64,000 nucleotides of DNA. Origin: an uncultured delta proteobacterium (GTDB lineage: Bacteria; Desulfobacterota; Binatia; UBA9968). The notes below the pieces were generated by a model, which saw only the letters and a list, made by a program, of their open reading frames with translations, searched no databases and was not told the origin of the DNA. Both the position numbers and the translations under genes were made by a program. Where the stretch lies: positions 32,001 through 96,000 of the forward strand of contig CAVUZH010000015.1 of assembly GCA_963745835.1 (NCBI GenBank). The letters run 5' to 3'. Numbering within the stretch: the first letter of the stretch is position 1; every line of letters begins with the position of its first letter. This document shows, one piece after another, positions 45,243-47,687 of the stretch.

Positions 45243-45818
45243 CTATCTTGACTCCTTGAACCAAGTTGACGGTTCACTCTTGAATCGAATGTCGGCGAAA
45301 TTCTGATCTGCCTCTAACTCCTGAAGTTTGCGGCGCTGTTCAGCGCTCAACTGCGCTTTTGCTTTTTCGATAGAACGAATGCGCGCGATCCGTAAATCGG
45401 CGCGAATCCGTTCGATATCGCGGATCTTGGCCTCGACTCGTGGCATGTCGACCGGTTGCGCCTCAAGCAAACTGGTCAGATCCAATTCGGCGATGCGAAG
45501 ATTTGCCTCGCTTCGAATCGACTCTTTGGCAAAATCACTGCGAAGGTGCTCCAAGTGTTTAACCTGATCCGCGGTTAAACCCAGCCGTTCGCGATTGCGC
45601 AGCATCAGTGAAATAGGCGCTCGGTCTTCCGCCGAAATTTCAAAGCTAAAATTTTCTTTCAATCGGTCCAGCAGTTCGCGCAATCTGCGGCCGATACTCT
45701 CCGGCGTTAAACTTCGATCCTCTGAGCTAAAATTCGACTCACTGGCCGCCGGGAGGTTATTGGGCTGAGCTATCAAAATTAACGCCAGCAGCAATCCTAG
45801 ACTTGCGTATATCTTCAT
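45243..45818 (-). CDS. Spy/CpxP-like periplasmic helical protein
   Basis: Signal peptide; LGLTADQV and LSAEQRRKL (LTxxQ) motifs; AGGAGG RBS. Confidence 0.85.
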   Translation of the reverse strand: MKIYASLGLLLALILIAQPNNLPAASESNFSSEDRSLTPESIGRRLRELLDRLKENFSFEISAEDRAPISLMLRNRERLGLTADQVKHLEHLRSDFAKESIRSEANLRIAELDLTSLLEAQPVDMPRVEAKIRDIERIRADLRIARIRSIEKAKAQLSAEQRRKLQELEADQNFADIRFKSEPSTWFKESR

Positions 45819-45968
45819 GGTCCCTCCTTGGGCACTCGACGAAGTTAAATCTGAGCTTCTACGCGCTCGATGTCAAACCTCCCCCGGCTCACAGAGTAAA
45901 TGTGAGCGCCGTTCTTTTAGCGGTCCAAGATTCTCAAAAAAGAATTTTTGATCGCACGAAATTATCGC

Positions 45969-45997
45969 TTGACAAATCATCCAGTCAGTAACAGATT
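45969..45997 (+). promoter_or_regulatory. Putative sigma-70 promoter of the 46.0-46.4 kb unit
   Basis: TTGACA at 45969-45974, 17-nt spacer, weak -10 CAGATT. Confidence 0.4.
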
Positions 45998-46002
45998 ATA
46001 AG

Positions 46003-46366
46003 TGGATCCACTGAGCGCCGCCGGGCGCAGGGGCCAGGTGGATTGCAGATCAGAGGGCCCCACGGGAAAAGGAGGTCTTCGCTATGCAAGACGAAACTCC
46101 ACCGGGTCATCAAAGCCCGCTGCTTGCGGGCCAAGCATCCTACCGGACGAAGAAGTTCTCGCGGTAGAGCTACTGTCCGATCGCTTCAACAAATTGCCTG
46201 AAGGCAAATAGTCGCCCAGCGACTCAATAGGCGCTCATCGGCAAAATGCTCAATAGCGAGTCTGTCCGAGGATGCTCGAAGATGCGAACAGCGGGCAGTT
46301 AAAAAAGTTTTGAACGTTAGCGTCAAAAGCGCAAAAAGGCGCCCTCCCCTGAGAGGCGCCTTTTTT
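46003..46366 (+). ncRNA. Candidate structured non-coding RNA of unknown class
   Basis: A nested series of helices between 46115 and 46296, with promoter upstream and terminator downstream; no convincing long ORF. Confidence 0.55.
46333..46366. terminator. Bidirectional rho-independent terminator
   Basis: AAAAAGGCGCCCTC-CCCT-GAGAGGCGCCTTTTTT. Confidence 0.85.
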
Positions 46367-46445: not shown

Positions 46446-47687
46446 TCAATCCCGTGGATCCTTGAGCAACGTTATCAGCCCAACAATACCCACCGTTAGA
46501 AATGCTCCCAGCACCTGCCAGGCGATTGCATACGATCCGGTGCGATCGACGATGTAGCCAAAGATCGGTGTGCCGAGAGTTGCACAGCCGGCATTGATCG
46601 TGATCATCAGTCCCAAACCCGCGCCGGTTCTGGCTTTGCCGGCAATCTCACCGATAAGCGCGTAAGAAACTCCCTGATACCCGACCAGGCAGACGCCTGC
46701 TAAAAACAATAGAGGCAGGAGGAGATAAATCGGTGATTCCGGCTTCATCAGGCTCAGGGCGAGAATCGTGAGCGCGGACGATACACCGATGACAACCAAA
46801 ACGATTTTGCGCCGGCCGCCAAACAGCCGGTCGCTGGCAACACCCCAACCGATGCGTCCGACCATGCCGCCGGCCTGTGTTAGGGCCAAAGCCTGGCTTG
46901 CCCAGTACGGGGAAAAGCCCATCGCATCTTTCAAATAGAGCGGTGTGTAGGTGATCAAAGCCATTTGCCCGACCAGGTAAATAGCGGTGCCGCAGCTGAC
47001 CGGAAGAAGACTCCAGATGTTGAGCGGCGCTGCCGCATCATTTGCGGCACGCTCAGGAGAATCATGTTTGAACGAATCCCCGACCGGGTCGCGCCAGAAA
47101 AACCAGAACAAAAAGCCGAATAGAAAATTGATCATGCCCAGCGCAGCCAGTGCACCGCGCCAGCCGATGAGCAAGACTAGCGCAGGCGCGAGCATCGCGG
47201 TCACGACACCGCCGGCCGGTACTCCGGTCTGCTTGATGCCCATCGCCGTGGCGCGTTCGTCGCGATGAAACCAGGACATCACGCCTTTGGTCGATGCAGG
47301 ATTAAGAAAACTATAGCCAAACCCGGCAAGAAAAAAGCTGGCAAAGGCCCAAGTGAAGGAAGGCGCAAGCGCGGCCGCAAGGGTGCACAAACCTAGAATT
47401 AGATGCCCCTGCAAGGACGTCTTGCGCACGCCGAGCCGGTCGGCGAGCCATCCTGTGCCAAAGGAAGCGCCGGTCATCGCCAGGTAAAACGCCGAGAAAA
47501 ATAATCCGACTTGCGCGCGCGACAAACCCAGTTCATCTTTGTAGAAAGGCGCTAAAGTATTGATGCCGTATTGCGCGGCCGCGCCGATCACGTGAGAAGC
47601 GCTGATCAACGCGAGAATCGCCCAGCGAAAACGATCTCGCTTTGCGGATTCATCCACCGATGAATCTGCTTTCAGCCCAGGCTCCAT
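46446..47687 (-). CDS. MFS transporter
   Basis: GWLADRLGVR and GVASDRLFGGRR motif A; about 12 TM segments. Confidence 0.95.
   Translation of the reverse strand: MEPGLKADSSVDESAKRDRFRWAILALISASHVIGAAAQYGINTLAPFYKDELGLSRAQVGLFFSAFYLAMTGASFGTGWLADRLGVRKTSLQGHLILGLCTLAAALAPSFTWAFASFFLAGFGYSFLNPASTKGVMSWFHRDERATAMGIKQTGVPAGGVVTAMLAPALVLLIGWRGALAALGMINFLFGFLFWFFWRDPVGDSFKHDSPERAANDAAAPLNIWSLLPVSCGTAIYLVGQMALITYTPLYLKDAMGFSPYWASQALALTQAGGMVGRIGWGVASDRLFGGRRKIVLVVIGVSSALTILALSLMKPESPIYLLLPLLFLAGVCLVGYQGVSYALIGEIAGKARTGAGLGLMITINAGCATLGTPIFGYIVDRTGSYAIAWQVLGAFLTVGIVGLITLLKDPRD

Follow-up and report, generated by a model that had tools for sequence, protein, structure and literature searches.

Positions 46003 to 46366 of the window (the whole 64,000-nt stretch of DNA that was analysed) had been read in an earlier note as an orphan transcription unit whose RNA folds into a long rod with a branched tip. 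The locus raises the question of what kind of RNA is made here and what such an RNA could do. In this study, we found that it is a free-standing gene for a conserved structured RNA of ~360 nt in soil Binatia.

Locus, transcription and distribution

A -35 box, TTGACA, was found at 45969-45974 (+), followed at 17-nt spacing by a -10 position at 45992-45997 (+). The -10 box is a poor match in the window's genome, and the promoter was therefore not called by a consensus scan. TTGAC was present 5' of the RNA in 75/77 non-redundant members and in 20/20 further loci, and the -10 box of the homologues mostly had TA at positions 1-2 (T in 47/75, A in 68/75). At the other end lies an intrinsic terminator, probably bidirectional, at 46333-46366 (+). 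The terminator scan listed this hairpin solely on the minus strand, and the fold gave a hairpin with a U-run on the plus strand. Many double changes were found in its stem among 45 homologues, which is strong covariation. Promoter spacing and terminator give a predicted transcript of ~363 nt at 46004-46366 (+). In sequence terms, the RNA has a sigma70-type promoter and a terminator to itself, the two boundaries that the earlier note had named.

The RNA is flanked by a divergent gene for a Spy-like periplasmic protein (PF13801) and by a convergent MFS gene ending at 46446. In several genera, many members have the Spy-like gene, here at 45243-45818 (-), next to the RNA. A promoter-like site on the minus strand (45961-45988) overlaps the RNA's own promoter. 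The genes 3' of the RNA differed in kind and direction among the members and were often convergent; therefore, no gene appears to be regulated in cis, and a leader of the downstream gene was ruled out on the same ground. One truncated copy (L209, G098:C521) has neither the 3' rod strand nor a terminator and leads directly into the Shine-Dalgarno (SD) site and start codon of the next gene, for which it may now serve as a leader.

Transcription is supported by contigs from RNA runs. Twenty runs from 13 studies in all contained part of the stretch, 10 of these runs being on record as RNA, and the RNA-run contigs covered the element in 7/7 runs compared, between 46006 and 46330. Two of the covering RNA assemblies hold just 10 million letters, and high abundance is therefore inferred. 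In the first RNA-run comparison the flanks were uncovered, and a run of unrecorded type crossed the promoter; covered bins numbered 4, 6 and 14 of 30 in RNA runs and 30/30 in the run of unrecorded type. This is a weak hint at the transcript ends, because the runs were chosen for holding the sequence and were represented by contigs alone, without strand. Contigs X3, X5 and X9 from RNA runs also held a second sequence that shares only the tip (46191-46225) and has different flanks, and it appears to be another family member in the same RNA libraries.

Homologues were found in 72/89 genomes of the family, in 2/5 of a sister family and in 0/28 of a third family. The 72 combine the matches of a covariance model of the tip (R2, 50/89) with those of a model of the 5' part (R3, 66/89); BLAST matched 13/61 relatives. 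A search with a tip pattern gave homologues among the collected genomes, and of the 81 metagenome loci that it matched, 80 were confirmed by profile. The weak matches that were inspected directly (13, 18 and 20) had the same layout except for the truncated copy described above and one cut by a contig end; for R3, this statement covers the inspected weak matches. The layout begins with the TTGACA promoter, an optional 5' domain, the SD site, a start codon, 3-5 free codons, Pro-Pro and an 11-nt spacer. It continues with the rod and its branched tip, an A-rich linker with a small GCGC-type hairpin (46297-46332 (+) in the window, the hairpin at 46320-46332) and the terminator. Several genomes had two copies, and the window's genome has one.

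Outside the family, the corrected tip model matched 0 of ~132 genomes from other orders of the class. A phylum sample gave 0/150 genomes with model R1, a weak result as the structure line of this model was mis-registered. Among 401 phylum genomes, a pattern search had 13 matches outside the family, about the number in the reversed-pattern control, and none had the tip. The tip model misses true distant members (9/20 at E ≤ 1), so more distant relatives may exist. No copy was found in viral contigs, plasmids or phages, and a mobile or viral element was rejected on this ground and on the single copy in the window's genome. Full-length copies were also present in two genome records titled Syntrophobacter (L033 and L054), next to Spy-like and CBS-domain genes as in the Binatia loci, and these titles may be wrong.

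When the window was searched against Rfam with cmscan at E ≤ 10, just two sub-threshold matches were obtained, the better one on the terminator, and neither the window nor any of 21 homologue loci gave a real match. The earlier note had seen no signature of tmRNA, RNase P RNA or SRP RNA; in agreement with this, no such family model matched at the RNA, and all three genes were present elsewhere in the genome. The rod RNA was not described in Rfam 15 or in the literature searched, a scope outside which lie the supplementary tables of structured-RNA surveys, which could list it. As far as Rfam 15 and this literature reach, it is a family-wide, previously unlisted RNA class, and the view of a stand-alone, conserved, structured RNA without an Rfam family is supported.

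Structure of the rod, the tip and the 5' domain

The predicted fold contains a long imperfect rod of 182 nt with ~50 long-range pairs at 46115-46296 (+). All eight rod helices that had been listed from the letters were in the sequence, with every pair standard. The two tip hairpins were also present, at 46194-46207 and 46210-46224, and they form with a closing helix a three-way-junction tip at 46182-46233 (+). The MFE of the 364-nt stretch was -150.7 kcal/mol versus a mean of -123.0 for strict dinucleotide shuffles (z -4.54), and 0/100 shuffles were as good. One member from each of 12 clades (57% mean identity) folded into a rod, 11 of them with 47-63 long-range pairs. The z-scores of these 12 used strict dinucleotide shuffles, and those of the 21-member fold set and the further-loci set used shuffles of two-letter blocks, which are not strict dinucleotide shuffles. 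Among the members, the predicted rod measured 150-210 nt and its length differed by more than 20 nt per strand. The two main classes, of 62 nt and 84 nt, differ by 22 nt on the 5' strand, which is about two turns of an A-form helix.

Covariation in homologues, the check suggested for the fold, was seen in the 5' part, the tip and the terminator, and the mid-rod was not recovered by RNAalifold on a plain alignment of 45 homologues. In the tip, 91% of cells were paired and double changes occurred at 9/18 pairs; distant members kept the tip shape with different hairpin sequences. In the 5' part, both-side changes were found at 9/29 pairs against 3.0 expected from column shuffling, and slid controls paired far worse. 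The six closest sequences had no rod pair with a double change. When rod strands were compared with swapped ones, own strands paired better both as a whole (-67.9 vs -53.7 kcal/mol) and in the mid-rod alone (-34.8 vs -24.8 kcal/mol; own partner best in 12/30 rows, ~1 expected). A 10-member short-rod clade had 7 long-range pairs with double changes; as kin are not independent, the figures of the strand-swap and clade tests are not probabilities. The observation of the structure is confirmed; its mid-rod, which diverges too fast for plain alignment, is supported by the 12-clade folds, the strand swaps and the short-rod clade.

The first 110 nt had been described as separate hairpins. The hairpins were found, and the region also holds a predicted pseudoknot, an SD site and a start codon. 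The optional 5' domain at 46005-46061 (+) is a predicted H-type pseudoknot made of P1 (46005-46012/46037-46044), the P2 hairpin (46015-46028) and P3 (46030-46035/46056-46061). P1 and P2 covary: P1 had both-side changes at 3/8 pairs with 98% of cells paired, and P2 at 2/4. P3 was conserved and had no double change, so it is complementarity that speaks for the crossing helix. The pseudoknot type was present in 46/77 members and a GCGCGC-loop type in 9/77, and the domain was absent (leader <45 nt) in 15/77. The second type is a hairpin with a self-complementary GCGCGC loop, found in L009, L186, L192, L205, L212-L216 and several of L238-L256. It resembles the kissing loops of retroviral dimer initiation, and its loop might pair with the small GCGC-type hairpin near the terminator.

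A possible conformational switch had been seen in the pairing of 46012-46019 with 46230-46237. This pairing is present and standard-paired, and as a switch it was not conserved: its 3' partner differs in the three nearest relatives and is missing from more distant ones, making the pairing peculiar to the window's genome. A local hairpin at 46115-46131 (+), pairing 46115-46120 with 46126-46131, competes with the rod base, and at least 5/6 of its pairs were kept in 61/77 members. Several other arrangements were dropped. Loop-loop kissing of the two tip hairpins was complementary in some members only, and the hairpin B loops were often of the stable UNCG type. A hammerhead or HDV-like ribozyme did not fit in junction sequences and helix order, judged by eye against the familiar patterns. 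Pairing of the RNA 5' end with the 16S tail was abandoned as P1 covaries inside the RNA. Pairing of the SD site with the tip closing strand, judged by eye, was good in the main clade and weak in others, including the window's genome. In one member (L242), tip hairpin B carries an insertion of ~90 nt, so the length of this hairpin is not fixed.

A short reading frame with a Pro-Pro site

An SD site with a 9-nt match to the genome's 16S tail lies at 46068-46076 (+), and GGAGG was present in 68/77 members. It precedes a short ORF of 27 aa (MQDETPPGHQSPLLAGQASYRTKKFSR) at 46084-46167 (+). SD and in-frame start were found in 165/178 loci, 12 of the other 13 being cut by contig ends; the count was 165/166 among loci with an intact 5' part and 20/20 among the further loci. 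The loci came from an independent profile, and the start search was limited to in-frame starts 4-7 codons before a Pro-Pro-like site. In one metagenome locus (L069), a short deletion, which may be an assembly error, has removed SD and ATG and left an in-frame GTG. The start, ATG and twice GTG, stood in frame 4, 5 or 6 codons 5' of Pro-Pro.

Codons 6-8 of the window's ORF (46099-46107, +) encode Pro-Pro-Gly, a predicted pause site. Pro-Pro was present in 76/77 non-redundant members, with Ser-Pro in one, and in 20/20 further loci (97 in all, the 20 not de-duplicated). From the second Pro codon to the rod-base CCCG runs an 11-nt spacer (46105-46115, +) of varying sequence and fixed length: it measured 11 nt in 76/77 members (10 nt in one) and in 20/20 further loci, that is, in 96/97 under a search that allowed 9-12 nt. 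Among 35 cluster representatives, the Pro-Pro codons showed a pN of 0 and a pS of 0.53 with free third positions, and the peptide outside Pro-Pro was near neutral (pN/pS 0.8-1.4). The frame was open to codon 16 in 33/35 representatives versus 23/35 and 19/35 for the other frames. Length among the homologues ranged from 8 to 54 aa, with modal lengths of 33, 26 and 31 aa. A profile of the peptide gave 38 matches among 1.84 billion proteins, about 33 of which belong to the rod RNA family, and NCBIfam had no family for it. As Pro-Pro carries the only coding signature and the rest is near neutral, translation seems to be selected and the product not. The call of a non-coding RNA was therefore half right: SD and in-frame start are conserved, and the peptide is not under selection except at Pro-Pro.

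The residue after Pro-Pro was mostly Gly, Asp or Asn, and Thr preceded it in 45/77 members. A third Pro, at codon 12, is kept in place by the rod base; the sole member with a 10-nt spacer has lost it. The first Pro was encoded by CCA, the genome's rarest Pro codon, in 55/76; CCT was never found there (0/76 and 0/20) and occurred at the second Pro in 26/77. The stop codon lay 13-15 nt before tip hairpin A in 35/75 members, in both the 62-nt and the 84-nt rod class. The TAR triplet at this place was in frame in 19/28 clusters having it, a count without a valid p-value because the clusters are kin. Twelve of 75 members read into or beyond the tip; in 3 members the stop is at codon 19. In each of two genera, a second copy (L192 and L212) stops right after Pro-Pro-Gly, giving an 8-residue ORF, with rod and tip intact.

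SD and start codon are covered by a weak hairpin at 46071-46103 (+), in which 46075-46079 pairs with 46088-46092 and SD with the Pro-Pro codons (4/5 pairs). The Pro-Pro codons pair with SD at 4 pairs in 98.5% of cells, and the one change from Pro to Ser (L007) is a compensatory A-U pair in this helix; RNA pairing can therefore explain part of the Pro-Pro conservation. EF-P is present in the window's genome, and Hfq was not found there.

A proposed translation gate and its alternatives

We propose, tentatively and with slightly less than even confidence, a gate-and-release mechanism in which a pause at Pro-Pro leaves the rod folded and read-through unzips it. The RNA would be transcribed from its sigma70-type promoter to its terminator, and a ribosome would load at the weakly masked SD and start, as their conservation suggests. 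A ribosome with the second Pro in its P site would have the first rod pair just outside its mRNA channel. A pause at this point, longer when EF-P activity or Pro/Gly-tRNA is short, would preserve the folded rod with its tip and protect the RNA's 5' end. During fast elongation the rod would be unzipped, and the ribosome would usually stop at the tip base; the junction would probably be opened and the 3' strand freed for decay. The gate would thereby set how much folded rod RNA there is, and this RNA would act in trans on a protein partner; the peptide would be a by-product.

The argument for this gate is mainly one of geometry. The mRNA channel holds ~12 nt and extends 11 nt past the first base of the P site (PMC7282821). 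When codon 7 (46102) occupies the P site, the first rod pair (46115) falls at +14, and therefore the rod would be intact; the next step would start to open it, so the pause would be the last position before unzipping. This coincidence of position, kept by a spacer whose length is constant and whose sequence is free, forms the core of the argument. The rod, moreover, is kept across clades that are ~57% identical. Among the residues common after Pro-Pro are Asp and Asn, and in E. coli PPD and PPN were seen only among pausing motifs (PMC4140641). Against the gate, we counted that the tip sequence is not universal and that some members stop at codon 19 or read past the tip. L192 and L212, which stop right after Pro-Pro-Gly, could therefore never unzip their rod. 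Hairpins inhibit the ribosome at 11-12 nt (PMC7282821), and +14 is one to two bases beyond this position. Strong pausing is reported at only 2.8% of PPX motifs (PMC4140641), and Thr or Ser before PPP is reported to weaken stalling (PMC4176338). In a wider reading, possible and rather doubtful, the ribosome sets the shape of the RNA, which would be a stand-alone, abundant sensor of EF-P/proline-tRNA status through a Pro-Pro pause at the rod foot, signalling in trans or holding a paused ribosome, with no gene behind it.

Known systems share parts of this design. The mgtL leader of Salmonella senses proline and controls the gene behind it through Rho-dependent termination (as described in PMC5021804); like the rod RNA, it has a short Pro-containing ORF, whose translation speed picks between RNA folds. 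The rod RNA, by contrast, ends in a constitutive-looking terminator and is followed by unrelated, often convergent genes. As in attenuators of the mgtL and trpL type, the sensing codons overlap alternative helices (Pro-Pro, the SD helix, and the local hairpin versus the rod base). However, no consistent same-strand gene lies downstream, in the window or among the varied, often convergent neighbours elsewhere, and for this reason the RNA is not an attenuator. By analogy, it would work most like a proline-sensing leader without a gene behind it. The rreB/rreR mini-mRNAs of Alphaproteobacteria are also small stand-alone transcripts with their own promoter and terminator, an SD masked in a hairpin and a short ORF (PMC5711450). 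They have at least 16 nt complementary to the 16S tail before that ORF and clade-conserved peptides; they engage the ribosome through a long SD, are found mainly on ribosomes and are not known to have a function. The stability of rreB is set by ribosome engagement, and the word 'proline' is absent from the main text of PMC5711450. The rod RNA is not of this kind because its anti-16S match, measured against the 16S tail of the window's genome, was 4-10 nt in 77/77 members, 10 nt at most against the 16 required. Its peptide is unconstrained, its length is double that of the rre RNAs, and it carries a branched-tip rod and a Pro-Pro site. At the stem-loops of dnaX and HIV gag-pol, a helix likewise meets the mRNA entry channel at a defined codon (PMC7282821, PMC8861025). 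Those are hairpins of 11-12 bp behind a slippery site in a long ORF, acting at 11-12 nt, whereas here a ~50-pair rod starts 13 nt beyond the first base of the P site, and no conserved slippery sequence was seen. Dual-function sRNAs such as SgrS, RNAIII and SR1 are small RNAs with an ORF of <60 codons, and the 3' region of RNAIII folds back to restrain translation (PMC12310071). They have base-pairing targets and functional peptides, whereas the rod RNA lies in a genome without a detected Hfq, is mostly locked in the rod, and encodes a peptide of 8-54 aa that is not conserved. A further RNA with such a double role is rnTrpL. We file the rod RNA as a variant of ribosome-engaged mini-mRNAs and leader switches.

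The Pro-Pro site and the rod could also serve a ribosome that stays. One ribosome would then be held at Pro-Pro, with rod and tip contacting, storing or modulating it and unzipping incidental. The spacer fixed in 96/97 fits this reading, as do the paralogues that end after Pro-Pro-Gly and keep rod and tip; with a ribosome standing at codon 7, the start region would be covered and the complex would be 1:1, the main rod classes differ by about two helical turns, and the RNA was assembled even from 10 million letters. We nevertheless consider it unlikely: read-through is suggested by a frame that usually stays open until a stop at the base of the tip, clades differ in their tip sequences, and ribosomes far outnumber rreB-like RNAs, as the rreB authors argue (PMC5711450). 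A control at initiation can also be envisaged, in which CCNCC is a deliberately imperfect anti-SD, Pro-Pro is incidental without any pause in elongation, and the rod is a stable RNA body. The SD:CCNCC helix was kept at three pairs in 33/33, the compensatory change destroys Pro6, and the perfect anti-SD codon CCT is avoided at the first Pro and common at the second. This account has a low probability in our view, since it explains neither the Gly/Asp bias after Pro-Pro nor why the stretch between Pro-Pro and the rod has a constant length when that from start to Pro varies by whole codons, and since Pro-Pro was kept in 8/9 members whose SD lacks GGAGG.

That the RNA might be a divergent 6S RNA had been raised from its shape, and it does share with 6S (RF00013) a long imperfect rod of similar length (150-210 nt), abundance and a stand-alone gene. 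It differs in having a branched tip, a translated 5' strand and another locus, and no central bubble: the longest unpaired run on the 5' strand was 2-8 nt in 20/21 MFE folds and 13 nt in one. RF00013 matched neither the window region nor 21 homologue loci (22 members scanned), and the model does find canonical 6S in 37/123 genomes of the order. 6S RNA binds RNA polymerase holoenzyme and templates a product RNA, and its usual locus lies between zapA and ygfA/rny. This locus is on a different contig from the rod RNA and gives the RF00013 match in G002, G003 and G007. Canonical 6S coexists with the rod RNA, at another locus, in 27/74 other carriers, so that the idea of a divergent 6S did not hold and orthology was ruled out. 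A second 6S-like decoy, whose rod would bind RNA polymerase holoenzyme until translation of the short frame releases it, is quite improbable given the same observations and rods that differ by more than 20 nt per strand. In its favour, the window's genome has no RF00013 match, and its clade lacks ~110 nt of canonical 6S; this shortening keeps a substitute role open and does not explain the other carriers. A peptide product, either a small regulator or a type I toxin silenced by the fold-back rod, is the least probable of the readings. Type I toxin mRNAs encode a conserved hydrophobic toxin and are paired with an antisense antitoxin RNA. A strong SD, the modal lengths and the gene callers that predict these peptides speak for a product. 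However, pN/pS is ~1 outside Pro-Pro, frameshifts occur and lengths vary; no hydrophobic stretch was seen in the alignment and no NCBIfam family was found. A promoter scan of both strands found none inside the element for an antisense RNA, and the element is absent from plasmids, phages and viral contigs.

Proline-pause leaders known so far control a gene behind them, and the rod RNA would be a free-standing gene joining the ideas of pause leader and mini-mRNA; a ribosome-gated rod of this design was not found in Rfam or the literature searched. It is near-universal in a soil bacterial family, and its geometry is unusually sharp and testable. If the gate is true, the RNA would be a trans-acting, RNA-built readout of translation-elongation status and could help to explain why bacteria retain very small ORFs with peptides of no consequence. 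Pause and unzipping are testable in standard cell-free translation, for which culture of the host is not needed.

Two further loci were observed in the course of these comparisons. The zapA-ygfA spacer measured ~510 nt, with canonical 6S intact and matched by RF00013, in G002, G003 and G007. It was ~400 nt, ~110 nt shorter and without an RF00013 match, in the window's genome G000 (G000:C1:25950-26350; L065:1765-2162), in G004 and in G006. In all six genomes, a second conserved element of ~250 nt follows; its long ends are complementary, and it contains an open frame and a CCCAC motif like that of 6S. This element may be a diverged second 6S; in G000 it folded no better than shuffles (z -0.14). 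Elsewhere in G000 (G000:C25, near 68874, +), 13 nt match the complement of the 16S tail exactly and a short frame follows, possibly an rre-type mini-mRNA.
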